Below are positions 7,770-38,707 of a stretch of DNA of 64,000 bases, in pieces; within the stretch, counting starts at the first letter, position 1, and every line of letters begins with the position of its first letter. Origin of the DNA: an uncultured Clostridia bacterium (GTDB taxonomy: Bacteria; Bacillota; Clostridia; RUG12999); contig CAKVOK010000002.1 in assembly GCA_934792465.1 (NCBI GenBank), forward strand, positions 23,109-87,108, given 5' to 3'. The translations under genes were made by a program, and so were the position numbers. Under the pieces are notes generated by a model. That model saw only the letters and a program-made list of their open reading frames with translations. It did not search any database and was not told the origin of the DNA.

Positions 7770-7812
7770 GAGGGTGTTGCAGAATGAAATTGTTTTGCAG
7801 CGCCCTCTTTTG
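7770..7812 (+). terminator. Rho-independent terminator. A 13-bp stem AGAGGGTGTTGCA / TGCAGCGCCCTCT with 2 G-U wobbles, followed by a T-tract.
   Basis: The hairpin plus TTTT is read directly from the sequence, immediately 3' of the 7467-7757 gene. Confidence 0.6.
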
Positions 7813-7863
7813 GGGCTTTAGAAAAATATTGCTTTATGCGGTCTGTGCATTTTTATAATGCCC
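7806..7863. repeat. Short copy of an interspersed MITE-like repeat (shared ends GGGGCTTTAGAAAAATA..TGC and TATGCGGTCTGTGCATTTTTATAATGCC)
   Basis: The element ends are shared with 15908-16176 and, inverted, with 33830-33912. This copy lacks the internal segment. Confidence 0.6.
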
Positions 7864-8086
7864 CTTTTACATATTTATACTTATTTAAACATTATAAATA
7901 AAAATGTGGAAAGCGTTATTAAATTTTTATGCAAGTTATGTCGTTTTTGCGCAAGTTATGACATTGCTATTGCATAAAATAAAAAAATCATGTAAAATTA
8001 TAATATGAAAATCTTTGAAAAATTACCCTGAGGTAAAAGATTTTAAAAATTATAAAAGCCGGCAGGGCGGCAGTAAGGAGATTTAT

Positions 8087-8629
8087 ATGGTAATTGCTTT
8101 GGTGATTGTACTGGTTGTTATTGTTTTGTGGTTTATTTCAACACAGCGTAAGCTGGTTGCAATGGACGAGAATATCAATAACGCAATGAGTCAGATAGGC
8201 GTTCAGCTTTCGTCGAGGTGGGACGCACTGACAGCCCTTTTGGATTTGACAAAGGGATATGCGGAGCATGAATACAAGACGCTTTCGGACACGATAAAAA
8301 TGCGCTCGTCCATAAGTGCCAAAAGTTCTGCCGCAGAAGTAAACGCACAGGAGAACCTGATAACGGAAGCTGTAAGCAGAATAATGGCTGTTGCCGAAAG
8401 CTATCCTGAGCTTAAGGCAAACGAGAATTATATCAAGACTATGGACAGCGTAAACGAATATGAGAAAATGGTTCGCCAGTCGAGACTGATATACAACGAC
8501 AGCGTTACAAAGCTGAACCGTGCGATTCGTATGTTTCCGACATCAATTGCGGCAGGTTTGATGCATATTACAAGCCGCGATTATCTGGAAGCGAACGAAA
8601 AGAAAGCCGATATGCCGAGCATGAAATAA
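8087..8629 (+). CDS. lemA: LemA family protein
   Basis: It has a single N-terminal TM helix followed by LemA motifs (QRKLVAMDENINNAMSQIGVQLSSRWDALTALLD...YPELKANENY...E...R..YNDSV). ATG 8087 is preceded by an AAGGAG RBS. Confidence 0.8.
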   Translation: MVIALVIVLVVIVLWFISTQRKLVAMDENINNAMSQIGVQLSSRWDALTALLDLTKGYAEHEYKTLSDTIKMRSSISAKSSAAEVNAQENLITEAVSRIMAVAESYPELKANENYIKTMDSVNEYEKMVRQSRLIYNDSVTKLNRAIRMFPTSIAAGLMHITSRDYLEANEKKADMPSMK

Positions 8630-8685
8630 AAAACCTTGGCAAAGTTTATTTGTGCCGTGAAAAGACGGCGGAAACGGAGATTCAT

Positions 8686-10335
8686 ATGAAGCTTATTAAA
8701 AAGCTGTTGATTGCGATTCCGGTTGCTGCTGCGTTGTTTTCTTATTCTGTTGCTGCAAAAAACAACGTTTCGGAAATTGCAATTGACGTAACCGTCAGAG
8801 ATGACGGCAGTGCCTATGTTGTTCAGAATTGGACAGGTGAATTCAACGAGGGAACGGAAAATTACATACCGATTAATACAAACGATATCGGAATATCGGA
8901 TTTTAAAGTGTCGGATGCCGGCGGAGAATATACCTTTGAGGACAACTGGGATATTGATGCCGACTTTGATTCAAAGAAGAGAAAGTGCGGAATCAATGAA
9001 ACCGATGATGGAATAGAGCTTTGCTTCGGAATATCGGAATACGGCGAGAACAGATATGCGATAGAATATGTTGTGTCGGATTTTATTAAATCGTATTCGG
9101 ACAGGGACGGAACGAACTTTATGTTTATAAATCCGAATATGTCAACTTTTCCGACGGACGGCAGGATTACGATTGTGCTGGAGAACGGAACGCCGCTGAA
9201 TCAGGATAATGCGGCGATATGGGCGTTTGGATTTGAGGGCGAAATAGAGTTTGCGGACGGAAAAATAAACGCATACACAACAAACCCTCTGGAGGGCGAT
9301 AATTCCATGATTGTCATGTTCGGCATGGACAAAGGGATAATCACGCCCGAAACAACGGTTGACGAGTCCTTTGAGGAAGTAAAAAATATTGCTTTTGAAG
9401 ACAGCGATTACGGGTATGAAGAAGCCGGCTTTTTGGAAGAGCTTATAGGCTATATTGTTTTGGCGGGATTTTTTGCCGCAATTTTTATGCTTGTAGCATA
9501 TTTTATAAAAAGAAAAAAAGAAATCAAAGCGTTTTACAAAGAAGCGGGATATTTTAGAGATGTGCCGAACGGCGGTGATATTGAGATTTCGCATTTTCTT
9601 GCACAGCAGTTTAATATAGCAGGAAACGAAAGCCTTATTATAGGAGCGTTAATGCTTTCCATGATTAATAAAGGATGTATTGAACCGCAGTCGGAAGAAA
9701 ATATCGGAGTGTTCGGAAAATCGAAAAAGTCGGTAAATATGAAGCTGATAAAAGAGCCTGATACAAGCGTTGAGAAAAGGCTGTATAAGGTGCTTAAGGC
9801 GGCTTCGGGCGATGACGGTATTTTGCAGGAAAAAGAGCTTGAAAAATATGCTTATAAACATCCGAAATCGGTGAACGGGCTTATAGATTCCGCCAAAAGC
9901 GACGGCGAAAGTGCTTTTGTTGCCGAGGGCGGATTTGTAAACGGATACGGAAACCGAATTAAAAATCTGACGGAAACGGGTAAAAAAGAGCTTGCCGAGG
10001 TTATCGGACTGAAAAAGTATCTTGAAGAATTTTCTCTGATAGCCGAAAGGGAGATAAACGAAATCTTGATATGGCAGGATTATATGGTGTATGCAACGCT
10101 GTTCGGAATTGCCGATAAGGTTATAAAACAGTTTGAAAAGGTTTATCCCGACAAGATACCCGAATTTGAAAATTATAACAGAAATGTGATTATTGCACAC
10201 AGCTATTATCACAGTATGCACAGGTCGGCGGAGAGAGCCGAACAGCAGGCGAGAACAAGCGGTTCGGGAGGCCGGTCGTCCGTAGGCGGCGGAGGCGGTT
10301 TCTCCGGCGGCGGAAGCGGAGGCGGTTCGAGATGA
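8686..10335 (+). CDS. DUF2207 domain-containing membrane protein (TPM/LemA-partner family) with a C-terminal glycine-rich tail
   Basis: It has a signal peptide, a long extracellular domain, a TM helix at about residue 270, and a C-terminal GSGGRSSVGGGGGFSGGGSGGGSR tail typical of DUF2207. It is conserved immediately downstream of lemA. Confidence 0.7.
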   Translation: MKLIKKLLIAIPVAAALFSYSVAAKNNVSEIAIDVTVRDDGSAYVVQNWTGEFNEGTENYIPINTNDIGISDFKVSDAGGEYTFEDNWDIDADFDSKKRKCGINETDDGIELCFGISEYGENRYAIEYVVSDFIKSYSDRDGTNFMFINPNMSTFPTDGRITIVLENGTPLNQDNAAIWAFGFEGEIEFADGKINAYTTNPLEGDNSMIVMFGMDKGIITPETTVDESFEEVKNIAFEDSDYGYEEAGFLEELIGYIVLAGFFAAIFMLVAYFIKRKKEIKAFYKEAGYFRDVPNGGDIEISHFLAQQFNIAGNESLIIGALMLSMINKGCIEPQSEENIGVFGKSKKSVNMKLIKEPDTSVEKRLYKVLKAASGDDGILQEKELEKYAYKHPKSVNGLIDSAKSDGESAFVAEGGFVNGYGNRIKNLTETGKKELAEVIGLKKYLEEFSLIAEREINEILIWQDYMVYATLFGIADKVIKQFEKVYPDKIPEFENYNRNVIIAHSYYHSMHRSAERAEQQARTSGSGGRSSVGGGGGFSGGGSGGGSR

Positions 10336-10360
10336 ACCGTAAATTTGTTGCGGAAAGCCG

Positions 10361-11443
10361 GTGGTGTGTTTGGATGTCCTTAATTTTGTGACGGTAACGC
10401 TGTATGGCTGCATTATCATGATACTGTTCATGAATGAAACTGAAAACAAATTGCATATTTGCGGATTGTTTGCGATTTGCCTGCTCGGCGGAATTTTAAA
10501 CCTTGTTTTGCGGCAAAAATTCAGCAACGGTATATTGTACATGACTTATCCGCTGACGGTGCATTTGCCGTTGCTGCTGTACTTTATATTTGTAATGAAA
10601 AACTCGGTGTACGGGGCGATATTTGCGCTTACGGCGGCATATATGCTGACCACGCCGAGAAAGTGGCTGTGTATATTGGTAACACATCTGCTCGGCGGCG
10701 GAGCTTTGGCGGAAGCGGCGGCAGAAATAGGCGTATCGGTTGTACTTTTGCTGCTGATTGCGAAATTCATGTCGAAAATCGTAAGAAAAATATTTGCCGG
10801 AGGGCCGAAAGAAGCAAAATATCTTTGCATACTGCCGGCGGCGGTTTATGTGATTACATATGCTACGACGGTATACAGTGATTTTTTAATGAGCCGGCCG
10901 AATATAACAATACCTGTGCTGACAACGGCATTGTCCGTGTTTTTTATAGGCTTTGAGATATACTTTTTCGATTACGCATTTGAAAGGGTAAATATACGCC
11001 ACAGCAAACAGCTTGCGGATTTGCAGCTGCGTTCCGTTGAAAGACTTGCGGAATGTATAGGCGGCGGAGAAACGTATTTTTGTGAGAATAAAACGGTAAA
11101 CGGATTTTTGTCGATGTACAAATCTGCTGCTGCCGCAAAAAATATATTCTTTGTCTGCAACTGCAATTTGCCGGAAAATATCAATACGTTTGATGTACTT
11201 GTCATTATTGCAAGTGTACTTGATGATGCACTGAATACGGCAAAGCAGTATATTCGGTTTGAAGCCGTGCGGAACAAAAACCAGATAAGCATTAAAGCGG
11301 AAACGGACGGAAAAGGAATTTATGACAATGCCATGCTGGCAACGCTGGATTCCTCCGTAAAGAAAAACAACGGTATGATTTATACCGACAAAGAAAATTA
11401 TAAAATACAAATATCAATTAAAAAAGGAGAAGATTTAAAATGA
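10361..11443 (+). CDS. Orphan membrane sensor histidine kinase-like protein (AgrC/LytS-type GHKL ATPase domain, HPK10-like)
   Basis: It has 5-6 predicted TM helices. A candidate H-box lies at NIRHSKQLADLQLR. The C-terminal GHKL-like segment is VLDDALNTAKQYIRF...ISIKAETDGKGIYDNAM...GMIYTDKENYKIQISI. The start is uncertain: GTG 10361 or ATG 10418. No response regulator is adjacent. Confidence 0.45.
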   Translation: MVCLDVLNFVTVTLYGCIIMILFMNETENKLHICGLFAICLLGGILNLVLRQKFSNGILYMTYPLTVHLPLLLYFIFVMKNSVYGAIFALTAAYMLTTPRKWLCILVTHLLGGGALAEAAAEIGVSVVLLLLIAKFMSKIVRKIFAGGPKEAKYLCILPAAVYVITYATTVYSDFLMSRPNITIPVLTTALSVFFIGFEIYFFDYAFERVNIRHSKQLADLQLRSVERLAECIGGGETYFCENKTVNGFLSMYKSAAAAKNIFFVCNCNLPENINTFDVLVIIASVLDDALNTAKQYIRFEAVRNKNQISIKAETDGKGIYDNAMLATLDSSVKKNNGMIYTDKENYKIQISIKKGEDLK

Positions 11444-12264: not shown

Positions 12265-14618
12265 GAAAATTTTTAGCGTGTATTCTTACGGTTGCTATGT
12301 TGGCGGCTTGCGGCGTGAATACGGTTTTTGCCGCATTTACGATTGAGAAAGACGCTCAGACCGCAATGGAAAAAAATCAGTCCGAAGTGTTGGCAGCAGT
12401 CGAAAATGCAGAAATTACAAACGATTTTACACAAGATGACCTTGAAAGTATCATAGTTCATGCGTGCAAGTATTCCGTTGACAAAAGCTACGGTGCTTCA
12501 CTTGAAGTGGTTAATTTCAGCCTTACGCCGGCAACCGATTCAAAAGCCGGTTCGGTTAAGGCAAATGTAGTTCTCTCGCAGGAGGACGGCGAAGTGGTAT
12601 TTCTTGTGAAAAAAGATATTCCTAAGCTCTCCGGTGCTTCGGACAGCACCGACAAGGTTACCGTAGACGAAGTAAAAGCTACCGTAACCGCTGCGTTGGA
12701 AAAGCTGAAAATATCAAATACCACTGCGAAAGATGATATTCTCGAAGCGGCTGAATATGCTGCTCCGAGCGGTGTTTCGATTTCGGTAGATAAGTTTGAT
12801 TTGACAGTAGCTCAAAGCGGCGGCACGGGAACTCTTGAAGCAACGATAACCGTTAAGCTTGCGGACGGCGAAAGCGGAAGCTTTAAATACAGCAAAACGT
12901 TCTCAAACGGTACGGCGCAGGAGGAATCCAAGCTGAAAAAAGAGATTGCGGCGGCAAAAAGCGCAATCAGTGCCGCTATGTGGGATTTTGAAGTATCAAA
13001 CGATACGACAAAAGAAGAAATTCTGAAAATGGCAAATAACGCACTTCCGAGCGGCAGCACCGTTACGGTGTCACTGAACAGCTCCGATATTTCGATTACG
13101 AAAGCAAGTACAACGATTGAGGGAACGCTTTCCGCAACACTTACGCTCAATTGCGGCGGCATTGAAGAACGCCATTCGGTGGCAAAGACAATCCCGAAAG
13201 TAGTGAATGCAGAATCAACAAAGATTGATGCGGACAGAAGCGCTGTCAGCAAGGCTGTCAGTGCCATAACATATACGAATAAGACGACAAAAGAGGATAT
13301 GTTCGAGGCGGCGCAAAAAGCAGTGAAAAACGGTTCTAAGCTTGCTTGGAAAGGTGAAGTCAAGAAAGTGAAGGCTACTTTTGAGGCGGAGGGATTAATT
13401 ACCGGTGACCTTTCTATAACACTCGGCGGAGAAACGAGAGAACTGGGATTTCGTGAGAGAATTCCGAAGCTCACATCTAAGATGCCGAATAAAACAATTC
13501 CGGTTACTGAAGATGAATGGAAGGTTTTGCGCCTTACAAACAAGGAACGTGCGAAACAGGGGCTGTATTTGCTGACTATGGCGGGTCCGCTTCAGGATGC
13601 GTGCAATATTCGCGAGAAAGAAGCTCTGGAAAGCTTTTCTCATACCAGACCGGACGGAACAAAATTCAGTACGGCAATTTCGCAGTCGTTTAAGCACAAT
13701 ATTGTGGGCGAAAATCTTCATCACTGCACGCCGGGACACGAAAATCCGGAAAGAGCTGTGACGGACTGGATGAACAGCCCCGCACATAGAGAAAATATTC
13801 TCAGAGATAGCTTTGATTATATCGGTATCGGCATAAACGATACGAATGCGGTTCAGATTTTTGCAGGCGTGGAAAATCCGATAGAAACGGTAACTTCAAG
13901 TACAGGTTCTATGAGCTTTGAAGATGAAGAAGCCATGATAAAAGAATATCTTATTTGCCGTACAAGCGGCGGCACGGAAACATATATTCCGCTCGATACG
14001 GACTATATGACAAAGACGGACGGGGGATATACGCTTAAGATACGCAGTACAAACCCCATAGTCGTGACCGTGGGAACTTCGACAACAGAGGTTAAAGAAG
14101 AAAAGGTATCATTCAACGATGTAAAAGATAGTGACTACTTCGCAGTACCTGTTAAATGGGCGGTTGAAAAGGGTATAACCACAGGTACGTCAAATACGAC
14201 GTTCTCACCTGCCGAAACCTGCACACGTGCGCAGATTCTGACATTCCTCTGGAGAGCCGTAGGCTCGCCGAAATCAAGCAAGGCGAATCCGTTCGGAGAT
14301 GTTAAAGCAAGCGATTATTACTATGACGCGGCCGTATGGGCAAGCGAAAAAGGCATGGTATCGGGAAATACGTTTGCGGGCGACACTCCGTGCACACGTT
14401 CGTCAACCGTTGTTTATATGTGGAAAAACGCAGGTTCGCCGAAAATTGAAATTCCGAGCAAATTCAGCGATGTACCGCTTAGCTCCGAATATGCGCCGGC
14501 GGTTGCATGGGCATTGGCAAACAGCGTAACAAGCGGAACATCGGAAACGGAATTTTCACCGGATACGATATGCGACAGAGGTCAGATTGTGACGTTCTTA
14601 AACAGAGCGTTAAGTTAA
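12261..14618 (+). CDS. Cell-surface lipoprotein with repeated N-terminal beta domains, a CAP (SCP/PR-1, YkwD-like) domain and three C-terminal SLH repeats
   Basis: It has a lipobox (LAACG). The CAP domain motifs are W..L.LTN.ER...GL, HTRPDGT and WMNSPAHRENIL. Three SLH-like repeats follow: F-DV....W.A..KGITTGTS.T.FSP...TRAQI... Confidence 0.65.
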   Translation: MRKFLACILTVAMLAACGVNTVFAAFTIEKDAQTAMEKNQSEVLAAVENAEITNDFTQDDLESIIVHACKYSVDKSYGASLEVVNFSLTPATDSKAGSVKANVVLSQEDGEVVFLVKKDIPKLSGASDSTDKVTVDEVKATVTAALEKLKISNTTAKDDILEAAEYAAPSGVSISVDKFDLTVAQSGGTGTLEATITVKLADGESGSFKYSKTFSNGTAQEESKLKKEIAAAKSAISAAMWDFEVSNDTTKEEILKMANNALPSGSTVTVSLNSSDISITKASTTIEGTLSATLTLNCGGIEERHSVAKTIPKVVNAESTKIDADRSAVSKAVSAITYTNKTTKEDMFEAAQKAVKNGSKLAWKGEVKKVKATFEAEGLITGDLSITLGGETRELGFRERIPKLTSKMPNKTIPVTEDEWKVLRLTNKERAKQGLYLLTMAGPLQDACNIREKEALESFSHTRPDGTKFSTAISQSFKHNIVGENLHHCTPGHENPERAVTDWMNSPAHRENILRDSFDYIGIGINDTNAVQIFAGVENPIETVTSSTGSMSFEDEEAMIKEYLICRTSGGTETYIPLDTDYMTKTDGGYTLKIRSTNPIVVTVGTSTTEVKEEKVSFNDVKDSDYFAVPVKWAVEKGITTGTSNTTFSPAETCTRAQILTFLWRAVGSPKSSKANPFGDVKASDYYYDAAVWASEKGMVSGNTFAGDTPCTRSSTVVYMWKNAGSPKIEIPSKFSDVPLSSEYAPAVAWALANSVTSGTSETEFSPDTICDRGQIVTFLNRALS

Positions 14619-14639
14619 AATAAAAAAGGAGAAATTACG

Positions 14640-15869
14640 ATGTGTAAAAAAATATTAAGTGTATTTATTGCAATTTGTACATTGCTGACAATGACGGCAG
14701 GAACTGTTTTTGCCGATGAAACAACGGAGCTTAAAGCTGCAAGAAAGGCTCTTACATCAAGAGAAAAAGAAATAGTGGCATATAACGATATTACGCCGGA
14801 AGAATTTCTGATTAATGCCGCAAAGGTACTTCCGGAGGGCAGCACGGTTGAGCTTTCATTCAAAAACTCGGATGCTGATTTGCGTATTTACAGAGCAACA
14901 ACCGAAAAAGCAGGTTCGATATTCGCAAATATGGTTTTAACTTGCGGAGTTTATAAACAAAGTGAAATGGTAACCGTACCGATTCCGCAGCTTACGGACA
15001 CAGAAGCCGACAGCGACAGAGAAAAGATCGGAAAAGACAAAGAGATAATTGAAAATGCAATAAAATGGGTGTACGTTACAAACGACACGACGGCAGACGA
15101 TATCTTGAACGAATTGAGAAAGTCAATAAAGAACGGTTCGGAGATTGCTTGGGATACGGATTATAAAAAACAGGACGCAACAGAAAAATCTGCCGGCGGC
15201 AGACTTGACGGAACATTGATTCTTACTTTAAATAACAGAAAAGAAACAATTAAAGTGTTAAAAACAGTTCATTTCGAAGCACCTGCAAAAACAGATGATG
15301 AACAGAAGCCCGCAGAAGAACAGAAACCGGCGGAAGAACCAAAGCCTGCCGCAAACATTTCGTTCAAAGATGTAAAGGCAGATGATTATTATGCTGATTC
15401 CGTAAAATGGGCAGTTGAAAAAAACATAACAACGGGTACGTCAAATACAACGTTCTCGCCGGAAGATACATGCACACGTGCACAGATTATAACATTTCTC
15501 TGGAGAGCTGTCGGTTCGCCGAAAGCAAGTGCGGCAAATCCGTTCGGTGATGTTAAAACGAGCGATTATTATTATGACGCAGCCGTATGGGCGAGTGAAA
15601 AAGGAATGGTGTCGGGAAATGTGTTTGCCGGCGATACGCCTTGCACACGTGCGTCAACCGTAACATATCTTTGGAAGAACGCAGGTTCTCAGGGAATAAG
15701 ATATGATGGATGCTTTGACGATGTATCCGAAGATGCTGACTATGCGACAGCGGTAATGTGGGCATTTGAGGAAGGAATCACAAGCGGAACATCGGAAACG
15801 GAATTTTCGCCTGACGCTATATGCAACAGGGGTCAGATTGTGACATTCCTTAACAGAGCAATAGATTAA
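14640..15869 (+). CDS. SLH-domain cell-surface protein. It is a tandem paralog of the 12261-14618 gene and lacks the CAP domain.
   Basis: It has a signal peptide. Its N-terminal domain resembles the repeats of the upstream gene. The C-terminal three SLH repeats are about 85% identical at the nucleotide level to 14120-14610. Confidence 0.65.
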   Translation: MCKKILSVFIAICTLLTMTAGTVFADETTELKAARKALTSREKEIVAYNDITPEEFLINAAKVLPEGSTVELSFKNSDADLRIYRATTEKAGSIFANMVLTCGVYKQSEMVTVPIPQLTDTEADSDREKIGKDKEIIENAIKWVYVTNDTTADDILNELRKSIKNGSEIAWDTDYKKQDATEKSAGGRLDGTLILTLNNRKETIKVLKTVHFEAPAKTDDEQKPAEEQKPAEEPKPAANISFKDVKADDYYADSVKWAVEKNITTGTSNTTFSPEDTCTRAQIITFLWRAVGSPKASAANPFGDVKTSDYYYDAAVWASEKGMVSGNVFAGDTPCTRASTVTYLWKNAGSQGIRYDGCFDDVSEDADYATAVMWAFEEGITSGTSETEFSPDAICNRGQIVTFLNRAID

Positions 15870-15874
15870 TAGAT

Positions 15875-15912
15875 GAGGGTGTAGAAAAACGATTTCGTTT
15901 TGATGCACCCTC
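15875..15912 (+). terminator. Rho-independent terminator (GAGGGTG...AAAACGA-TT-TCGTTTT...CACCCTC) followed by TTTTGGGG
   Basis: The hairpin and T-tract lie immediately 3' of the 14640-15869 gene. The 3' arm is contiguous with the start of the MITE-like repeat. Confidence 0.6.
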
Positions 15913-16176
15913 TTTTGGGGCTTTAGAAAAATAGTGCAGAATGGACAAACTGAGCAAAAGCAAGGCTACGTCCTTGCTTTTGGTACCCGAAGGTGTACAT
16001 AAGTACATCGAGAGGCGAAGGTTGTTCATAGCATAAAGCAATATTTATTTTAGAAATTCGTTCTCGAACGAATTTCAACATCTGTTTTAATTCATTTGGT
16101 GCATTTGGGTGTTCTCTCTTATACTTTGTATCGGTATTTTCTTGCTTTATGCGGTCTGTGCATTTTTATAATGCCT
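15908..16176. repeat. Full-length copy (~270 bp) of the MITE-like interspersed repeat. It contains two perfect 11-bp hairpins: CAAAAGCAAGG-CTACGT-CCTTGCTTTTG and GAAATTCGTTC-TC-GAACGAATTTC.
   Basis: Both ends are shared with 7806-7863 and, in reverse complement, with 33830-33912. The internal palindromes are read directly. No ORF lies inside it. Confidence 0.65.
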
Positions 16177-16217
16177 CGTTTTACACTGTTTTCGGAATAA
16201 CGGTCTTATCCAAAAAG

Positions 16218-16260
16218 GACTACAAGAATTGACTACGCAGAAATATCAATACGCGGCGAT
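16218..16260 (+). promoter_or_regulatory. Conserved upstream cis-element (GACTAC-N7-GACTAC ... CGGCGAT), a candidate activator-binding site. It lies 60 bp upstream of the -35 box.
   Basis: It is near-identical to 26477-26519. Both the internal spacing (36 bp to CGGCGAT) and the distance to the -35 hexamer (60 bp) are identical in the two copies. Confidence 0.5.
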
Positions 16261-16277
16261 TATTCAAGAATGAATTA

Positions 16278-16306
16278 TTGCAAACCAAACGTTCATGAGT
16301 TATAAT
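16278..16306 (+). promoter_or_regulatory. Sigma-A-like promoter TTGCAA-17-TATAAT for the 16375 operon
   Basis: The hexamers and the 17-bp spacer are read directly, ~70 bp upstream of the start codon. Confidence 0.5.
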
Positions 16307-16374
16307 TGAGTTGTCATTAATGCAAGCCAACTCCGCATATGACAAAAAACTAAATTCATGAAAGGAATGGTTTT

Positions 16375-18060
16375 ATGGCAAAGAAAATATTGGCAATGTT
16401 ACTCGGCGCAATGCTTATGTGCAGCGGATTAGCGTCGGCGGAAGAAGTAATCACGGGCGACATCGTAATGGACGAGAGATTCAATTACGGCAGTGCAGCC
16501 GAAATGTACGAGGCTACGGGCGCAAGCCTCTGGGGCGACGGTTCGAGCGTAGACGTGGGCGTGGCAAACGGTGCGCTTATGTTCAAGTCGCTTTCTACGG
16601 GTACGGACGGAATCAAGCTTCCGGTTTCGACGGAAACGGAGAACGAGGGCAAACAAACGATTGAAATGAAAATTAAGCGTTCCGACGCAAATACTTTCTG
16701 GCAGATACAGTTCTTCGGAAAAGAAGCAAACGGAACGGAAAGATATTTCACAATGCTTGACCTCAACAAAAGCGGACTCGTCTGGAAAGACGCAAATATC
16801 GGTTGGGGCGGCGCTCAAACTCTTACGACAATAAAGGGTATGGAGCCGCAGACAACGCTTGGTGTGCTGAATACATATATGAAGATAAAATTGGTTATCG
16901 ATTGGAACACTGATAAGATTAAACTCTTCATCAACGATAACGAACAGGATATTGCACCTTTTGTATTTAACCAGGCGGCAAATGTTGTAAAGGTATCGAG
17001 AATAGACCTTTTGAAACAGTCCGCAAGTGCCGATAATACAGTAACAAGCATAGACAGAATCAGAGTGGTAAACGGCGAAATAAACAATTATACGCCGGAG
17101 TCCGCATACGAGTATAAAGAAGAATTCAGCTATACAAATGTCGAAGATGTATTTGAAAACGGTATCGGAAAAACATCTGCTGTGGATGCCAATATCCCGG
17201 AAAACGATCCGAGTACGCTGTATGTACTTGACGGCAAGGGCAGATTGCAGATAAAGCAAAGTACGGCAAACGGTGAAACCGCACAGACAAACGGTCTGTG
17301 GATACCGGTTTCCGCATCGCAAGCGGACGTAAAATACATTGAGATGAGAATCAAAAGAAGCGGCAAAGCCAAAGCATGGTATAATATGACGGCATACGGA
17401 GTAAATGCGAATGGAGCGAGAAGAGCCGTTACAATGCTTGAACACGTAAACAATAAAAACGGCTTGCAGTGGAAAGGCGAGCCCTGGAGCTGGACAGGCG
17501 GCGGAAACATAAAAACTCTGAAAGACGGCAGAACGGTTGATTCCATTGCACAGTGGACGGTTGTAAAGCTGAAAATCAACTTTGCAAATAAATCGGTAGA
17601 CGGACTCTGGATAGACGGAGAAAAACAGGACACATGCCCGAAATTCTTTACAAGCGATGTAGTAGCGCTTGAGGGAATTACATTCAGCAAACAGGTTTCG
17701 ACATCAAACAACGCATGGGTAGGTATTGATTATATCCGTGTTTGGGACGAGCAGTCTGAAGAAAACAAGCTTGACGTTGAGCTTATGGAGGACAGCGGAA
17801 CATATACGGTAAACGCAGTAATGAACGACCTCGGATATTTCAAATCGAATGTTGTCGTAGCATATTATGACGAGGCCGGCAAGATTATCGGAATAGACAC
17901 AACAAGTCTGGACAAAATGACAACGCTTGACAACGGCATGGTTGTAAAATCAGCTTCATTTACACCAAATCTTGCGAATATTAAAAAAGCAAAGGTAATG
18001 GCAGTTGATTCATTAACAAACTTTGCGCCGATGTGTAATAGTATGGAATTAACAAAATAA
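16375..18060 (+). CDS. Secreted protein with two tandem ConA/LamG-like beta-sandwich domains (KIKRS...FWQ...G..R.F..LD.NKSGL.WK motif) and a C-terminal beta domain
   Basis: It has a signal peptide (MLMCSGLASA). An internal duplication is visible: MKIKRSDANTFWQIQFFGKEANGTERYFTMLDLNKSGLVWK and MRIKRSGKAKAWYNMTAYGVNANGARRAVTMLEHVNNKNGLQWK. The same domain type occurs in the 20749 protein. Confidence 0.5.
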   Translation: MAKKILAMLLGAMLMCSGLASAEEVITGDIVMDERFNYGSAAEMYEATGASLWGDGSSVDVGVANGALMFKSLSTGTDGIKLPVSTETENEGKQTIEMKIKRSDANTFWQIQFFGKEANGTERYFTMLDLNKSGLVWKDANIGWGGAQTLTTIKGMEPQTTLGVLNTYMKIKLVIDWNTDKIKLFINDNEQDIAPFVFNQAANVVKVSRIDLLKQSASADNTVTSIDRIRVVNGEINNYTPESAYEYKEEFSYTNVEDVFENGIGKTSAVDANIPENDPSTLYVLDGKGRLQIKQSTANGETAQTNGLWIPVSASQADVKYIEMRIKRSGKAKAWYNMTAYGVNANGARRAVTMLEHVNNKNGLQWKGEPWSWTGGGNIKTLKDGRTVDSIAQWTVVKLKINFANKSVDGLWIDGEKQDTCPKFFTSDVVALEGITFSKQVSTSNNAWVGIDYIRVWDEQSEENKLDVELMEDSGTYTVNAVMNDLGYFKSNVVVAYYDEAGKIIGIDTTSLDKMTTLDNGMVVKSASFTPNLANIKKAKVMAVDSLTNFAPMCNSMELTK

Positions 18061-24149: not shown

Positions 24150-26378
24150 ATGAATATCAAGGATTTTGTCACCAATAAAAAATTATTTTTAAAATACTGT
24201 ACGATGATATTTGTTTCGCTTTTTATAACTATTATATTCAGTTCCGCAGTTATAAACAAAACAAGAAGCTTTGCCGAAGAACAGATAAAGAACAACGGCT
24301 ATCAGTCGCTGAAACAGGTTCAGATTGCGCTCGACAGAGAAATTGTAAATATAAGGAAAACAGCAATGTCGGTGACGAGAAACAAGGAGCTTTCCGCATA
24401 TGTGTATAACTCTGACGATATTAACAGCATATACAGACTTTCCGAATTGGTTGACATGACGAATTTCAGGGATTTGGTAGGCGATTTCGTGCTGTTCGGA
24501 TATATTTATATGAAAGACAGTGACCTGATAATCTGCGAAAAGGGAAAATTCACTCCCAAGGAATTTTATGCATACCTCGGCTGTGAGGACGAAACATACC
24601 AGGAATGGTACAGGAAGATTAACGGAAAATATTACAATACGTATACCGAACCGATAAACATTACGCTTGCGGACGCATACGAGAGCAACAAGGTTGTGCC
24701 GTATTTCCAGTCGTTTCCGCTTAGGTCGTTTGAAAAAGGAAATCTTGTTATTTTTCTTGATTACAATAAGATAAATCAGATTTACGGCAGCAGATATTCG
24801 GACGGGAAAAATGCGCTTTTTGTGTTGGACAAGAACAACAAAGTCGTTTTCTCGTTTGGCGATGAATCGAAATTTGATAAAAGCTACAGTGACTTTGATG
24901 AAAAATATACTTCCGTAGGAAGAGATCTCATGGTGTTCAAAAGGGACTCACAGCTCAGCGACGTTACGTATATTTCCGTGGAAGAAAAAAGCTTTATAAG
25001 GGAACAGTTGAAGGGTGTTACGAGGGCGATATATTTGTATATACTGGTCGTTATTCTGATTTGCATTACGATTCCGGTGATAATAGCGCACAAGTTCACA
25101 TCGCCGGTGGTCGGCATATACAGGATGCTCAAAGGCAACAATATAAAAGAGCCGGACAGTATAGCCGAGGTTGTAAATTCCGTCAAGAAATTTATCGAGG
25201 AAAAGGATTCGGCGGAAATATCGTATAAGAAGCAGAAAGCGCAGTTTGCGGAGCAATCTCTGACAAACGCCGTTATAGGATTGCTGGAGGATTTCGTATG
25301 CGACGACGAGGGCAGAGAGTGTCTTGAAAAATATTTCACAAATAAATATATCAGAGTTATCACGGCGGAATTGGCGGATATTCAGACGAATGAGGATTGT
25401 GCGCTTTTGAGATATGCCGTGAAGAATGTCGGCACGGAGGTGCTTGAAAAAAATTCGGCGGTGTATGCGCTTGATTACGGCTGGAACAAGGTTATTTTTA
25501 TAATAAATTACGATAAAGACAATGCCGAAACGATTATGACGGAGTGCGAATATATCTCGGACGTATTTGCGGACGAATTCGGAGTTACTCTGAATATGGG
25601 AATCGGTAAAATGACGGACGATATTCAGAATATGTCAACGTCTTTTGCATCATCGGGAGAAATGCTCGAAGGACTTAATCTCAGCGGTGAACGCATAGGA
25701 ATATACGAGAACCGCCGCCGCAACGAAAGTATATATTATTTCACGGCGGAGCATGAAAACATGATTTTAAAGGCACTTGTAAATTCGGACAGCGAGAGCG
25801 CTTCGGAGGTAATAAACAAGGCGGTCGAGCTGCATAAGACGTCATCGCCGGATATTATAAAATGCTTGCATTTTCATCTTATAGCGACTGTGCTGAAGCT
25901 TGTAAACGATGAAAAGCTCGGACTTTCCGAAACGGAGCTGGAAAACCTCGGAATCGAACGGCTTTTCACTTGCGAAAAGATAACCGATCTGACGAACGAG
26001 ATAAACAGTGTGTTTGCGAAAATATGCTCTGCGGTGAAAGAACAGGGCAACAGCAAAAAAGATGTGTTTAAAACGCTTGTGATGGGATTTGTGGACGAGC
26101 ATTACGGCGACAACGGAATGAGCCTTGATATGGTAGCTTCGGCGTTCAATGTACACCCGACATATATATCGCATTTCTTCAAGGATACGGTGCGGAAGAA
26201 TTTTACAGAGTATGTAACGGAAAAGAGAATCAGCCGTGCGTGCGAGCTTCTCGAAACGGGAGCGACGCTCAACGATATTGCGATTTCGGTGGGATATGCG
26301 AACAGCACGGTACTTGTGAAGAAATTTAAAAAGGTCATGGGAGTTACGCCCGGAGAATACAGAAAATCAATCAAGTGA
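24150..26378 (+). CDS. Transmembrane one-component regulator. Its domains, in order: N-terminal TM, extracytoplasmic sensor domain, second TM, cytoplasmic linker, C-terminal AraC-family HTH. It is YesN-like but has no receiver domain.
   Basis: The first TM helix is IFVSLFITIIFSSAV. The second TM helix, at about residue 290, is AIYLYILVVILICITIPVIIA. The C-terminal AraC HTH_18 signature is VASAFNVHPTYISHFFKD....F..Y....R...A..LL..T...LNDIAISVGYANSTVLVKKFKKVMGVTPGEYR. No HisKA or receiver motif is present. Confidence 0.75.
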   Translation: MNIKDFVTNKKLFLKYCTMIFVSLFITIIFSSAVINKTRSFAEEQIKNNGYQSLKQVQIALDREIVNIRKTAMSVTRNKELSAYVYNSDDINSIYRLSELVDMTNFRDLVGDFVLFGYIYMKDSDLIICEKGKFTPKEFYAYLGCEDETYQEWYRKINGKYYNTYTEPINITLADAYESNKVVPYFQSFPLRSFEKGNLVIFLDYNKINQIYGSRYSDGKNALFVLDKNNKVVFSFGDESKFDKSYSDFDEKYTSVGRDLMVFKRDSQLSDVTYISVEEKSFIREQLKGVTRAIYLYILVVILICITIPVIIAHKFTSPVVGIYRMLKGNNIKEPDSIAEVVNSVKKFIEEKDSAEISYKKQKAQFAEQSLTNAVIGLLEDFVCDDEGRECLEKYFTNKYIRVITAELADIQTNEDCALLRYAVKNVGTEVLEKNSAVYALDYGWNKVIFIINYDKDNAETIMTECEYISDVFADEFGVTLNMGIGKMTDDIQNMSTSFASSGEMLEGLNLSGERIGIYENRRRNESIYYFTAEHENMILKALVNSDSESASEVINKAVELHKTSSPDIIKCLHFHLIATVLKLVNDEKLGLSETELENLGIERLFTCEKITDLTNEINSVFAKICSAVKEQGNSKKDVFKTLVMGFVDEHYGDNGMSLDMVASAFNVHPTYISHFFKDTVRKNFTEYVTEKRISRACELLETGATLNDIAISVGYANSTVLVKKFKKVMGVTPGEYRKSIK

Positions 26379-26420
26379 CTTTATAAAAATGCACAGGACG
26401 CATAAAACAAAAAAGTTTTT

Positions 26421-26464
26421 AAAGAAGTTGCAGTAAAATGAAATCATTTTGCCGCAACTTCTTT
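26421..26464 (+). terminator. Long imperfect hairpin of the AAAATGAAA family (AAAGAAGTTGC..TAAAATGA-AA-TCATTTTG..GCAACTTCTTT), a candidate terminator or attenuator
   Basis: It is read directly. Related hairpins lie at 33934-33968 and 38670-38707. Confidence 0.45.
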
Positions 26465-26476
26465 GCATATAAAACA

Positions 26477-26519
26477 GACTACAAAAATTGACTATGAAAA
26501 AACAGCAATATACGGCGAT
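26477..26519 (+). promoter_or_regulatory. Second copy of the conserved upstream cis-element (GACTAC-N7-GACTAT ... CGGCGAT), 60 bp upstream of the -35 box
   Basis: It is near-identical to 16218-16260 with the same spacing to the promoter. It lies immediately downstream of the AraC-type sensor regulator gene. Confidence 0.5.
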
Positions 26520-26536
26520 AAAGCAAAAGCGGATTA

Positions 26537-30393: not shown

Positions 30394-30394
30394 A

Positions 30395-32223: not shown

Positions 32224-32251
32224 AAATATATTAAAAAAAGGAGAGGTTAAA

Positions 32252-33817: not shown

Positions 33818-33829
33818 AACTTGGGACTT

Positions 33830-33912
33830 TACAAAAATGTGCAGACCGCAGGAAGTAAGACTTTGCCTTGCTTTTGCTCAGTTTGTCCATTCTGCACTAT
33901 TTTTCTAAAATC
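33830..33912. repeat. Inverted, internally deleted copy of the MITE-like repeat
   Basis: It is the reverse complement of TTAGAAAAATAGTGCAGAATGGACAAACTGAGCAAAAGCAAGGC ... TGCGGTCTGCACATTTTTGT and matches both ends of 15908-16176. Confidence 0.6.
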
Positions 33913-33933
33913 CCACCCACCAAAAAAATACAG

Positions 33934-33968
33934 AGTTGCAGCAAAATGAAAACCGTTTTGCTGCAACT
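33934..33968 (+). other. Perfect 13-bp stem hairpin AGTTGCAGCAAAA-TGAAAACCG-TTTTGCTGCAACT followed by TTTTATAAAAG (terminator-like, AAAATGAAA family)
   Basis: It is read directly. It lies between the solute-binding-protein gene and the GH88/105 gene. Confidence 0.5.
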
Positions 33969-33990
33969 TTTATAAAAGAAAGGTAAAATC

Positions 33991-35091: not shown

Positions 35092-35210
35092 TTGGAGAAA
35101 AGTTTGAATAAAATTGCCCATAGCACCGCTCACTGCAAAGCGGCACTCTGAATAATTTTCTTTCAAACTTGGTTTTGTGCCTTGAACCACGGAAAGGAAT
35201 GGTTATAAAT

Positions 35211-37463
35211 ATGGAAACTGTATTGAAATATAAAAATCCGTCGGAGGATTGGCTTGAGGGACTTCCGATAGGCAACGGCAGGCTTGCCGCAATGATTACG
35301 GGAGGTGAAAAGCATGACGATATTTGGCTTAATCATGAATGGCTGTGGAGAGGGAAAAACAGAAGCAGAGATAATATAAAATCTGCGGATATGCTGAAAG
35401 AGGTTCGGCGATTTCTCACAAACGGCGATTTTTACCGTGCGACCGCTCTTGCGAATGTGTGTTTCGGCGGCTTGGGCGGAATATCCGGTATGGAAAACAG
35501 CATAGATTCGTATCAGCCGGCAGGGAAACTGCGTTTTGATATGGAAAATCCGTGCGGATATATCGGACGGCGGCTTGATATAAAGCACGGTGTTGCGAGC
35601 GTTGAACGGGGAAATGTTACTTCTTATTTCATAGCACATCCGGGTATAAATATGATTGTCTGCCGTTGGGAGGGCGATATTTGCGGTACGCTGGAATATA
35701 CACGTACAGCCGATGAAAATGCGGAAGAAAAATGTGTTGCGTCGGGTAATGAAATTATTTATAAATGCAGGTTTAAAGACGGTATTTCGTTTCAATGCAA
35801 TATTAAGCTCGAAACGGACGGACAAGCAATGGCGGAAAGCGGCAAAATCACAGTGTGCGAGGCAAATTGGCTGACTGTGTTTATTAACATTGCAACAGAG
35901 GTAAAAGGGATTGACTGCGAGCTTGAAAAATATCCGACACCGTATAATATGACTTGGGAAGAAATAATACAGACGCATAAATCAAGGTTTGCGGAGGTCA
36001 TGGAACGGTTTTGTCTTGAACTCGATTTGCCCGAAAATGATTTGTATACCGATGAGCGTATCGAAAGGCTCAAAAAAGGCGAAAAGGACGATTTGTTACC
36101 GCTGCTGTATTTTAACTACGGCAGGTATCTTCTGGTTTCTTCGTCAATCTGCGGCGAGCTGCCGGCAAATTTGCAGGGAAAATGGAACGATAATATAAAT
36201 CCGCCGTGGGGCAGCGACTATCATTTGGATATTAATTTGCAGATGAATTATTGGGCGGCGGAAGCCGTTAATATGTCGGAATGTACCGAGGCGCTGTTCA
36301 AATATATCGAGAGAATGATTCCTCATGCGAGGAAAGCGGCGGCGGATTTGTACGGCTGCCGGGGCATATATCTGCCTTTGCGTGCGGACGCATGGGATAA
36401 ATCCACGCCGGAGTCATACGGCTGGGCGGCATGGATTGGTGCGGCGGCGTGGATTGCCCGGCATTTTTGGCAGCATTACATATATACGGGTGATATAATA
36501 TTTTTGAAAGAACGTGCATATCCTTTTTTCAGGGAAACAGCAAGATTTTATGAAGATTATCTCGTTGAGGACAAAGACGGCGTAATGCAGATTATGCCGA
36601 GTCAGTCACCGGAAAACAGGTTTGAGGGAACGGGAATGTTTCCCGTAAGCATAGGAATATCATCTGCTATGGACGTTCAGCTTGCATACGATTTGTTCGG
36701 ATATGCCGTAAAATCCGCCGAGATTTTGGAAACCGATAAGGAAGATGTTGAAGCATGGAGAAAAATGAGAGATAATCTGCCGAAGTTTGAGATAGGCAGT
36801 GACGGCAGGCTGCTCGAATGGGACAGGGAGTATGCGGAGGTTGAACCGGGGCATAGGCATTTGTCGCATTTGTACGGACTTTATCCCTCGGATTTGTTCA
36901 ATCCGTCGGAAAGACCGGTGCAGTATACTGCGGCGGAAAAGTCGCTGGAATATCGGCTTGCGCAGGGCGGCGCACATACCGGCTGGAGCCGTGCGTGGAC
37001 GGCATGCCTTTATGCACGGCTCGGAAAAGGCGAAAAGGTGTGGGAACATCTTAATGCGAGCATAAAGGAATTTGCAACGGTTACGCTGCTTGATTTGCAT
37101 CCGCCGAGAATTTTTCAGATAGACGGCAATCTCGGAGCGGCGGCAGCTGTGACGGAAGCGATTGTGCAGTATTTCGGCGGAACGCTGCATTTGCTGCGTG
37201 CGCTGCCGAAAGCGTGGGAAAGCGGAAGCGTAAGCGGAATGAAAATTCCCGGCGGTGCTGCATTGAATATGAAGTGGAAAGACGGCGTGCCGACAGAAAT
37301 TGAAATTGTCGGCACACGGCAAAGCATAAAAATTGCATTGCCGGCAGGTAATGCAGTGAAACATATTTATGATACGAAAAATATGCGCAGTGTTGAATTT
37401 GCATCCGAAAACGGAGAGATATGTTTTCAGATTAAAGGCGATAGTACAATTGTAATTGAATAA
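35211..37463 (+). CDS. Glycoside hydrolase family 95 (alpha-L-fucosidase-like)
   Basis: The N-terminus is W.EGLPIGNGRLAAMITGG...IWLNHEWLWRG. The central (alpha/alpha)6 motif is LQGKWNDNINPPWGSDYHLDINLQMNYWAAEAVNMSEC. Its ~750-aa length is typical of GH95. Confidence 0.8.
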   Translation: METVLKYKNPSEDWLEGLPIGNGRLAAMITGGEKHDDIWLNHEWLWRGKNRSRDNIKSADMLKEVRRFLTNGDFYRATALANVCFGGLGGISGMENSIDSYQPAGKLRFDMENPCGYIGRRLDIKHGVASVERGNVTSYFIAHPGINMIVCRWEGDICGTLEYTRTADENAEEKCVASGNEIIYKCRFKDGISFQCNIKLETDGQAMAESGKITVCEANWLTVFINIATEVKGIDCELEKYPTPYNMTWEEIIQTHKSRFAEVMERFCLELDLPENDLYTDERIERLKKGEKDDLLPLLYFNYGRYLLVSSSICGELPANLQGKWNDNINPPWGSDYHLDINLQMNYWAAEAVNMSECTEALFKYIERMIPHARKAAADLYGCRGIYLPLRADAWDKSTPESYGWAAWIGAAAWIARHFWQHYIYTGDIIFLKERAYPFFRETARFYEDYLVEDKDGVMQIMPSQSPENRFEGTGMFPVSIGISSAMDVQLAYDLFGYAVKSAEILETDKEDVEAWRKMRDNLPKFEIGSDGRLLEWDREYAEVEPGHRHLSHLYGLYPSDLFNPSERPVQYTAAEKSLEYRLAQGGAHTGWSRAWTACLYARLGKGEKVWEHLNASIKEFATVTLLDLHPPRIFQIDGNLGAAAAVTEAIVQYFGGTLHLLRALPKAWESGSVSGMKIPGGAALNMKWKDGVPTEIEIVGTRQSIKIALPAGNAVKHIYDTKNMRSVEFASENGEICFQIKGDSTIVIE

Positions 37464-37483
37464 TGGGCATTTTTACTCAGCCA

Positions 37484-37525
37484 CTCTGGGTTTTGGAAAA
37501 ATAGTGCGGAACGGGAAAAATGCGT
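37484..37525. repeat. Partial copy (5' end only) of the MITE-like repeat (CTCTGGGTTTTGGAAAAATAGTGCGGAACGGGAAAA)
   Basis: It resembles CCCTCTTTTGGGGCTTTAGAAAAATAGTGCAGAATGGACAAA of the 15908 copy. Confidence 0.4.
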
Positions 37526-37595
37526 TTCACCTCTTGACAAATTCCGATATGTATTGTATCATATAATTATAAATATTCCGGATGGGTTGGATATG

Positions 37596-37928
37596 ATTAT
37601 GGATTACAAAATACGGGTCGCGCGGAAAGAGGATGCGGAAAAGCTTTTGAAAATATATGCTCCGTATGTTGAGAACACGGCTATAACGTTTGAATATACA
37701 GTTCCGACGAAAGATGAATTTGAAAAACGTATTGAAAATACGCTGAAAAAATATCCGTATATTGCAGCGGAACGCAATGATGAGATTTTAGGCTATGCAT
37801 ACGCCGGCGAGCTTTATCACCGTGAAGCGTATATGCATTCTGCGGAAACGAGTATTTATGTGGCACGTGACGGCAGGACGGTGCCGTATGCGGTGAAGAA
37901 ATTTGCGGAATATCTCAGCTTTATCTGA
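37596..37928 (+). pseudogene. GNAT-family N-acetyltransferase remnant, apparently 3'-truncated. It lacks the acetyl-CoA binding R/Q-x-x-G-x-G/A segment.
   Basis: The N-terminal GNAT beta1-alpha1-alpha2 region is KIRVARKEDAEKLLKIYAPYVENTAITFEY. The ORF stops right after SIYVARDG, where the conserved RGxGxG motif should follow. No continuation exists in other frames. A TTGACA-17-TATCAT promoter lies upstream. Confidence 0.4.
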
Positions 37929-37936
37929 ATTTGCTA

Positions 37937-37965
37937 TTGCTTTTTCGGAAAATATGTGGTATACT
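37937..37965 (+). promoter_or_regulatory. Sigma-A-like promoter TTGCTT-17-TGgTATACT (extended -10) for the SGNH hydrolase gene
   Basis: It is read directly. Confidence 0.45.
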
Positions 37966-38007
37966 GTAGTCGATGAAAAATTTAATAAAAAAAGGGGATA
38001 AATACCA

Positions 38008-38643
38008 ATGATGAAAATTCTTTTTCAGGGTGATTCGATAACGGATTGCGGAAGAAACACAAGTAACGGAAGCATGATTTCCATAGGTCAGGGATACGCT
38101 ATGCTCGTATGCGCTGCACTCGGATATAAATATCCGCAGGAATATGAATTTGAAAACAGAGGAATCAGCGGGAACAGAGTTGTGGACGTGTATTCGAGAA
38201 TCAAGGCGGACGGCTGGAATCTTGAACCCGACGTGTTCAGCATACTCATAGGCGTAAATGATGTATGGCACGAAATAGGCGGCGGCAACGGCGTAGACGC
38301 CGCACGCTACGAGAAAGTGTATCGAATGATGATAGAAGATACGCTTGAAAGACTTCCCGATACGAAATTTATGATACTTGAGCCGTTTGTGCTTAAAGCA
38401 GCGGCAACGGAAGAGAAATGGGACGAATTTAAGAGCGAGGTTGCTCTGCGTGCCGCAGCTGCGAAGAGAGTGGCAGAGGACTATAACCTTGTCTTTGTTC
38501 CGCTTCAGGAAAAATTTGATGCGGCGGCAGAGAAAACAAATGATGCGTCCTATTGGCTTGCGGACGGAGTTCACCCGACACCGGCAGGTCACGGACTGAT
38601 AGCCGAAGCTTGGCTTGAAGCGTTTGAAAAGAATATAAAATAA
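38008..38643 (+). CDS. SGNH/GDSL-family hydrolase (carbohydrate esterase-like, candidate glycan deacetylase)
   Basis: Block I is GDSITDCG and block V is DGVHPTPAGH, within a ~210-aa protein. Confidence 0.8.
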   Translation: MMKILFQGDSITDCGRNTSNGSMISIGQGYAMLVCAALGYKYPQEYEFENRGISGNRVVDVYSRIKADGWNLEPDVFSILIGVNDVWHEIGGGNGVDAARYEKVYRMMIEDTLERLPDTKFMILEPFVLKAAATEEKWDEFKSEVALRAAAAKRVAEDYNLVFVPLQEKFDAAAEKTNDASYWLADGVHPTPAGHGLIAEAWLEAFEKNIK

Positions 38644-38669
38644 ATCTGGACTTTATAAAAGTTCCGCAG

Positions 38670-38707
38670 GGAGTTGCGGCAAAATGAAATCATTTTGCGG
38701 CAACTCC
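38670..38707 (+). terminator. 18-bp near-perfect hairpin GGAGTTGCGGCAAAATGA-AA-TCATTTTGCGGCAACTCC followed by a T-rich tract
   Basis: It is read directly. It is a member of the AAAATGAAA hairpin family. The flank GGACTTTATAAAAGTTCCGCAGG resembles the MITE 3' end in inverted orientation. Confidence 0.55.

Follow-up and report, generated by a model that had tools for sequence, protein, structure and literature searches.

A dispersed, strain-polymorphic repeat family joining a terminator-like hairpin to a terminal-inverted-repeat module in an uncultured gut Clostridia bacterium

The stretch of 64,000 nucleotides (nt) analyzed here, referred to as the window (uncultured Clostridia bacterium, assembly GCA_934792465.1, contig CAKVOK010000002.1, positions 23,109-87,108, forward strand), carries a family of non-coding interspersed repeats in which a palindromic hairpin, H, is joined to a module bounded by terminal inverted repeats (TIRs). 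The repeats are dispersed over unrelated loci, vary in length, decay by deletion and conversion, and are present or absent at the same sites in different strains; the module is separable from H. [quoted passage not shown] The repeats had been noticed earlier in a reading of the window's letters alone (the original prediction). The window was compared with other sequences (L001 to L051), mostly metagenome contigs of other strains; about 150 kb of this species was read in total. Labels of the form P0xxx denote protein entries from spurious open reading frames (ORFs) that read through the element.

With all copies oriented alike, the unit consists of an A-rich stretch, H, usually TTTT, the left TIR (TIR-L), a variable interior and the right TIR (TIR-R). 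H is a near-perfect palindrome of 36 to 38 nt with stems of 15 to 20 bp, A- and T-tracts on its flanks and a consensus of about GAG(G)TGTTGCrGCAAAAyGAwwTyrTTTTGCyGCAAC(C)CTC. The module lies a few bases from H, TIR-L being the end nearest H. The TIRs, 24 to 27 nt long with the consensus GGGrCTTTAnAAAAAT(A)GyrCAGA, pair as the closing stem of the module; TIR-L begins with GGGGCTTTAGAAAAATAGTGCAGA, and TIR-R ends with TCTGTGCATTTTTATAATGCCCC. The modules measure 55 to 261 bp. In the fold of the full form, the TIRs close nested perfect palindromes, with a minimum free energy of -107 kcal/mol (z = -8.3), and the shorter copies fold as two adjoining stem-loops (z from -4.5 to -7.6). Comparison of the copies placed the endpoints of the internal deletions at short direct repeats; the deletions of a copy in L018, for example, are explained by the repeats AGCAAAAGCAA/AGCATAAAGCAA and ATTTT/ATTTT. 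Six loci, A to F, were found in the window, with the following features.

7770-7807, plus strand: hairpin H of copy A (GAGGGTGTTGCAG..CTGCAGCGCCCTC) with A5 and T4 flanks; profile E = 4e-9; 20-bp stem including the A/T tracts
7812-7866, plus strand: minimal 55-bp TIR module of copy A (TIR-L 7812-7832, TIR-R 7838-7866) with TTTT on both sides; BLAST and profile
15875-15912, plus strand: hairpin H of copy B; profile E = 6.5e-10
15917-16177, plus strand: full 261-bp TIR module of copy B (TIR-L 15917-15944, TIR-R 16155-16177); BLAST, profile and fold
26375-26402, minus strand: solo TIR-R fragment of copy C, overlapping the TGA stop of an AraC-type gene; BLAST, profile E = 8e-5
26424-26461, no strand: hairpin H of copy C, subtype GAAGTTGCAGTAAAATGA..TCATTTTGCCGCAACTTC; profile E = 8e-10
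33823-33914, minus strand: internally deleted TIR module of copy D (TIR-R 33823-33850, TIR-L 33887-33914); 57-nt match at 93%, BLAST and profile
33933-33970, no strand: hairpin H of copy D, followed by TTTTAT on the plus strand; profile E = 2e-8 and fold
37463-37553, plus strand: 91-nt strain-variable insert, copy E, with a TIR-L-like sequence at 37487-37514; profile E = 0.003
38647-38668, minus strand: degenerate TIR-R-like remnant of copy F; E = 1.5, accepted only because a family hairpin adjoins it
38670-38707, no strand: hairpin H of copy F (GGAGTTGCGGCAAAATGA..TCATTTTGCGGCAACTCC); profile E = 3e-10

Two small profiles, one of the TIR and one of H, were built and run on the window. The TIR profile found eight ends at E <= 0.004 (7812, 7864, 15917, 16175, 26376, 33823, 33914 and 37488), the remaining matches being noise, and the H profile found exactly five sites at E <= 4e-9 (7770, 15875, 26424, 33933 and 38670), with the next match at E = 0.23. 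When segment 15860-16200 was compared with the window by BLAST, perfect matches were obtained at 33865-33909 (45 nt, E = 2e-20), 7829-7862 (34 nt, E = 8e-14) and 7803-7828 (26 nt, E = 5e-9), along with a 26-nt match of 92% at 26381-26406 (E = 3e-4). The profiles and repeat statistics thus set the members cleanly apart from the background.

The five sequences given by the original prediction were recovered at their coordinates to within a few bases. The observation was real, but the locus at 26375-26461 had been overlooked, and both the copy count and the boundaries needed correcting; H belongs to the unit. The two perfect 11-bp internal hairpins that it described in the full copy were found at 15955-15965/15972-15982 and 16053-16063/16066-16076. 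The stems of this module lie at 15955-15982, 15992-16009 and 16053-16076, with an 11-bp long-range stem at 16031-16041/16142-16152. The fragment listed at 37484-37525 does contain the TIR-L-like sequence of copy E, although this match is weak and has no hairpin. Copy E also lacks a second TIR, and its insert is absent from L022, L017, L018 and L021; it is a degenerate fragment and not an intact copy. The end-like sequence proposed near 38645-38667 was not significant alone but adjoins the strong family hairpin of copy F. The TIR-R end of copy D occurs as two haplotypes among strains.

Copies A and B are in forward orientation, with H directly after the upstream gene, while in copies C, D and F the module or its remnant lies between the stop codon and H. 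Since copies occur in both orientations and the genes of the window are all on the plus strand, a strand-specific RNA role is unlikely. The description of the repeats as non-coding, bounded by TIRs and variable in length held throughout. A 31-amino-acid (aa) ORF in the module was rejected as evidence of coding capacity, as it has no ribosome-binding site and the changes between strains are mostly non-synonymous; no gene is annotated at the module in public contigs.

The family is not confined to this region. The two longest stop-free frames of the element were translated and used to search a protein database for spurious ORFs on metagenome contigs, which returned 31 clusters with about 18 different flanks. 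The translation of H (KEGAAKQFRFATPS) was found directly beside TIR-L in 17 ORF-derived contexts, indicating that the H-TTTT-TIR-L junction is family-wide. Three of the loci from this search were read. The copy in L049 follows a different heparinase/S-layer-homology (SLH) gene and has variant termini and an extra solo TIR-R. The copy in L050 follows an unrelated gene, and its module is interrupted by a second, unrelated TIR element of 282 bp. Two copies occur in L051 within 18 kb of housekeeping genes. An additional copy, G, is located at 9705-9840 of L018. The dispersal claimed by the original prediction was therefore borne out. Metagenome contigs from many samples end inside the element, as a multi-copy repeat would lead one to expect, and in this way the family fragments metagenome assemblies.

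The 282-bp element (L050, 153-434) has inverted ends of about 24 nt (CAGGCAATCGGAAACCGAGCCCTT / AAGGGTTCGATTTTCGCTTGCCCG) and is inserted in stem h6, replacing one arm and the loop. The spurious ORF that crosses it (P0153) is one of 15 sequences in its cluster, and the element may itself be repeated; it had no Rfam or tRNA match and was not found in the other sequence read.

Outside the species, no hairpin or TIR match was detected in 39 kb of contigs from relatives with QueA identities of 94%, 89% and 73% (L038, L037 and L048), a thin sampling in which L038 and L037 cover only the region that is copy-free in the window too. A degenerate 3'-end pattern (GCGKNCTGYRCATTTTTRTAAWG) had no match in viral contigs, one in GTDB genomes and five in JGI metagenomes. 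These six matches all lay in unrelated sequence and were due to chance, indicating that the source species is not in those collections.

Presence or absence of the unit at the same sites in other strains of the species was confirmed at sites A, B and E. At site B, the flanking genes of L005 and L010 are about 99.5% identical to those of the window, and the whole unit is absent. The empty allele carries an ordinary hairpin, ATATGCACTCCAC-TTCATCC-GTGGGGTGCATAT, which is unrelated to H and is followed by the same TTTTAC. Only two states were seen at this site, the resident hairpin and H with the full module.

Site A showed five allelic states in near-identical strains. In L006 and L009 there is a resident hairpin, GCTCCGAGC-AATAGCG-GCTCGGAGC, and no element. 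L040 has H only (CGCCCTC-TTTTT-ACAT), and the window and L001 have H with the 55-bp module. A different internal-deletion form accompanies H in L041 to L044, and the same form is probably carried by L002 to L005, whose contigs start inside the element. In L047, H is joined to the full 5' part of the module. The two sites vary independently: L005 has the unit at A but not at B, and L006 has it at B but not at A, indicating events at the level of the site and not a strain that simply lacks the family. The series at site A is unusually complete and offers a natural system for studying how such repeats move and decay, and also whether a mobile element can replace the terminator of a gene without harming its expression.

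In the filled alleles of both sites the flanks are intact but the resident hairpin is gone, and H takes its place between the A- and T-tracts. H lies 0 to 110 nt after stop codons, where ordinary terminators stand in the empty alleles. Terminator activity of H is argued from this position and from the hairpin-for-hairpin substitution. The original prediction had two copies beginning inside the 3' arm of a Rho-independent terminator. This was not upheld, as the terminator in question, GAGGGTG...CACCCTC, is itself a repeated hairpin of the H family and part of the unit. It had also left a choice between a target preference for terminators and an element that supplies a terminator. The second is favored, as H and the TIR module are found together at almost all loci, and in the empty alleles another hairpin, an ordinary terminator, fills the slot. 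The location of the unit in the terminator slot, just downstream of stop codons, likewise suggests that it supplies the terminator and does not merely land beside one.

Under the favored reading, the element would be moved by a transposase supplied in trans from elsewhere, possibly with a 3-bp duplication. H would serve as an intrinsic terminator working in either direction. In the forward orientation it would end the upstream transcript, and the TIR stem with the resident T-tract would make another structure resembling a terminator. With the unit reversed, transcription from upstream would pass through the module and stop at H. Deletions between short direct repeats, some of which took place in situ, produce the shorter module forms, and gene conversion swaps patches among the copies.

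The window encodes no transposase, as originally predicted. The full element and TIR-L gave only short chance matches when compared by BLAST with plasmids and phages; the best plasmid match, to a Rhodococcus plasmid, was rejected because it is not an insertion sequence (IS) end. The ends of the ISL3 family may be similar (GGCTCTT...AGTGCA), but the reading does not rest on this resemblance. A resemblance of the H arms to IS6-type ends or dif sites was dropped as a low-complexity coincidence. The sole trace of a transposase seen in the contigs of the species is a 71-aa rve_2/rve_3 remnant (IS3-type integrase core) at 16413-16628 of L051, which has no evident link to the element. Near it, at about 16900-16985, the sequence read by eye resembles a tRNA gene.

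Several observations weigh against the favored reading. H was not called by the simple terminator scan, which demands 5 T in 8; its tail is TTTTGGGG or TTTGCATAT, and GGGG follows after just 4 T. The sequence read for the species yielded neither an autonomous element nor a transposase whose ends match. The search for target-site duplications suggested by the original prediction gave a divided result. The filled site A allele (CCCTC-TTTT[module]TTTT-ACAT) differs from that of L040 (CCCTC-TTTTT-ACAT) by the module and three T, which is consistent with a 3-bp TTT duplication, and the copy at 5329-5582 of L051 is flanked by GTT/GTT. These are duplications of 3 bp in low-complexity sequence at two copies only; none was found at copy D, copy G or the L050 copy, or around H. 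Just as well, slippage from one flanking T-run to the other across the TIR stem could have deleted the module and left the H-only allele of L040, which would then be neither a state before insertion nor one after excision. Finally, the loss of the resident hairpin at both sites with empty alleles is not explained by simple cut-and-paste insertion.

The H-only allele also bears on a second account, which we consider possible though doubtful, in which there are two elements and not one. H would be a mobile terminator-like palindrome, and the module a separate MITE homing in fixed orientation into the T-tract 3' of H. The difference of only the module and three T in L040 supports this account, as do copies C and F, where H has only module remnants, the module-to-module junctions without H (P0176, P0180 and P0155) and the module beside a non-H hairpin in L049. 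Against it, the H-TTTT-TIR-L junction is repeated in copies A, B and G and in L051, as well as in the 17 contexts derived from ORFs, so that independent homing would need extreme specificity for site and orientation. Site B, moreover, has only the two extreme states, and the slippage described above can also yield an H-only allele.

Movement of H as single-stranded DNA by an HUH/Y1 transposase encoded elsewhere (RAYT or IS200/IS605-like), as in a REP/BIME-type or other hairpin-directed system, is unlikely. Both the replacement of one hairpin by another and the absence of a clear duplication would be accounted for by such movement. It draws support from the conserved palindrome at gene 3' ends, from the mosaic of module parts in varying combinations and from the nested perfect palindromes, which fold equally on either strand and would fit a structure at the DNA level. 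No duplication is seen at H, and the resident hairpins are displaced precisely between A- and T-tracts. However, no RAYT or IS200-type gene was seen in the approximately 150 kb read. No conserved GTAG-like tetranucleotide stands beside H, whose flanks share only A/T-richness, and the module has long true TIRs, unlike IS200/IS605-derived elements. The flanks hold no fixed target tetranucleotide except TTTTAC at two sites; this is common to the right flanks of A and B only, is also present in the empty alleles, and has no counterpart in a common left-flank tetranucleotide.

H, with or without the module, could also be a terminator cassette that propagates itself by writing over the intrinsic terminators already in place, through an exchange guided by the hairpin or its structure and limited by the A- and T-tracts. 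Such an exchange might come about, for example, when the template is switched at stalled forks or when extruded hairpins are processed by an HUH-type enzyme. We judge this improbable. If true, both target and payload would be terminators, no duplication would be left, and termination would be preserved.

Variation within the unit bears on whether it is instead a functional structured RNA, such as a small RNA gene or a stabilizer or regulator in the 3' untranslated region, under selection and not mobile. Strains diverge by about 5% in the site B unit and by about 0.5% in the neighboring genes. Eight changes cluster in one 18-nt stem, GGTGTAC-ATAA-GTACATC versus GGCGTAT-GTGT-ATACGTC, in which pairing is kept. 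The two versions of this stem are about equally common among copies elsewhere (11 and 12). Their spread across loci points to gene conversion between copies, and patchwise conversion is the simplest explanation of the variants, not selection on an RNA. Covariation was rejected as evidence for an RNA, since there are two compensatory pairs only, in one stem, and both variants are subfamily markers common to the loci.

A functional RNA is very unlikely. The high stability of the predicted structure (z = -8.3) and the stem that still pairs despite two double substitutions argue for it, but the substitutions are not independent covariation, and the helices relying on G-U pairs are the weakly supported ones. 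The copies lie in both orientations relative to uniformly plus-strand genes, and presence, absence and many internal deletion forms are tolerated at one site. The possibility that the repeats belong to a known structured RNA family, raised in the original prediction, found no support in Rfam 15. The whole window had no match at the gathering threshold, and L049 and L050 had none. A permissive search (E <= 1) over 15800-16400 returned one match, a snoRNA that is put down to chance (E = 0.93; 17.9 bits, with a cutoff of 40 bits).

As all six window loci lie between 7.8 and 38.7 kb, within 31 kb, and none in 39-64 kb, local segmental duplication of intergenic DNA in one 40-kb neighborhood had to be excluded, and it retains next to no credibility given the unrelated contexts of the L049, L050 and L051 copies, whose gene content excludes the same region, the approximately 18 further distinct flanks and the lack of similarity in flanking DNA beyond the element.

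Good descriptions of small interspersed repeats exist for a few pathogens, but there are hardly any for uncultured gut Clostridia. The family reported here is newly seen, and a single feature, the replacement of terminators, might lift it above the ordinary. If the replacement is an active, structure-directed process, it would represent a new route of terminator turnover.

The nearest analogues are the small repeats of pneumococci (PMC3049150; reviewed in PMC10969869). The element resembles a fusion of features of SPRITE, BOX and RUP/Correia and is by sequence a member of none. SPRITE, proposed in 2011 to act as a terminator (PMC3049150), is likewise an interspersed repeat of Firmicutes whose core is a long duplex (about 18 bp) with a U-rich tract and AAAA/TTTT ends, situated near gene 3' ends and without a recognizable parent IS (PMC3049150). 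SPRITE has no TIR module, however, and no sequence relationship is expected. No empty sites were available for SPRITE, whereas the empty alleles described here carry another resident hairpin in the slot. BOX of Streptococcus pneumoniae, boxA-(boxB)n-boxC, shares the modular build and variable length, the pairing of the end modules and the internal hairpin modules, of which there may be none, one or several. Both consist of strongly folded, non-coding repeats between genes, and other small repeats can be nested in them by insertion (PMC3049150); L050 is an example in our family. The two differ in that length varies here by deletions between short direct repeats and not by the number of one module, and H on one end creates an asymmetry absent from BOX. 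Their sequences are unrelated.

Long-TIR MITEs, namely RUP and the Correia/NEMIS elements of Neisseria, are also small, lack coding capacity and have TIRs, here of 24 to 27 nt, that pair into a long stem; they too are dispersed, present or absent among strains, and found at intergenic sites where transcription can be influenced (PMC10969869). RUP and Correia have a defined target and duplication (TA), and RUP has a candidate parent IS (PMC10969869), whereas in our family a duplication of no more than 3 bp can be proposed, for two copies only, no parent IS was found, and a resident hairpin is displaced. The REP/BIME elements with RAYT are similar in being conserved extragenic palindromes at gene 3' ends that form mosaics with other motifs without an evident duplication (PMC2817692). 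Typical REPs are shorter and less AT-rich than H, and neither a GTAG-type flanking motif nor a RAYT was seen here, while the attached module has true long TIRs. IS200/IS605-derived elements lack TIRs, have subterminal hairpins and insert 3' of a fixed tetra- or pentanucleotide, for which there is no equivalent here. Membership in the REP/BIME and IS200-derived groups therefore fails on their defining features.

At copies C and F, beside polysaccharide-utilization genes, lie the breakpoints of larger, strain-specific structural variants. In L028, which lacks copy C, a different 1575-aa gene replaces the AraC regulator upstream of the heparinase-like SLH gene (26379-26470 of the window versus 2204-2339 of L028), and homology to the window resumes just after the copy C hairpin. 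In L017, L018, L033 and L034, an aminotransferase/NifU/YtxC region replaces the window from 38874 onward, with the breakpoint exactly at copy F. The junction in these contigs holds a TIR-R remnant and a hairpin followed by TTTTGGGG, and the block absent after the GDSL-lipase gene encodes SLH proteins, an ABC sugar transporter, an AraC regulator and Big_5 proteins. Directly after copy F in the window, a 24-bp inverted repeat (38717-38777, GCATACACGTACATAATAAAAAAG / CTTTTTTATTATGTGCGTGTATGC, 96% complementary) forms a second long hairpin that does not belong to the H family.

The window has a G+C content of 43% and strongly positive GC and AT skews. Housekeeping genes come first (P5CR, SpoIIM, XerD-type recombinase, SecG and QueA), followed by genes for SLH proteins, AraC regulators, ABC sugar transporters and GH88/GH95/heparinase-like enzymes. 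Exact-protein look-ups matched human-gut metagenome contigs, including those of the Hadza and Nepal cohorts, and the nearest named relatives of QueA (Lachnospiraceae and Clostridium) were only 68 to 72% identical, which marks the source as an uncultured Clostridia species.

Around site B, an outward promoter in TIR-R (TTGCTT-19 nt-TATAAT) was considered and rejected, as the spacer is too long and the promoter scan was silent; a good resident promoter lies downstream of the site whether the allele is filled or empty. A conserved motif, about 45 nt long and reading GACTACAAnAATTGACTAyG...ATAyrCGGCGAT, occurs at 16218-16265 and 26477-26525, upstream of a 561-aa gene (16375, no Pfam match) and of the SLH/heparinase-like gene (26488). 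It is present in filled and empty alleles, indicating that it is not part of the element, and it may serve both genes as an operator or promoter-upstream site; the gene of an AraC-type regulator is located between the two. The 561-aa gene (16375-18060, after copy B) shows 94% identity, with indels, between the window and L002 and L005, while its neighbors exceed 99%; the region is a local hotspot of divergence or recombination. Before copy B, the segments 14102-14618 and 15353-15869 are the 3' parts of neighboring SLH-protein genes (77 to 79% identity over about 430 nt, spacing 1251 nt). They are tandem paralogues with no relation to the element.

Upstream of site A, the 96-aa helix-turn-helix (Cro/C1-type) gene at 7467-7757 is mostly deleted in L006 and L009, which have the resident hairpin at A, and only its last 20 nt or so remain. 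Next to copy E, the GNAT acetyltransferase gene (37554-37928) is truncated to a 124-aa ORF in the window and has a 195-aa form in L019, L020, L028 and L033. A different 5' deletion was found in L017, L018 and L021, and the gene is decaying in several independent ways.

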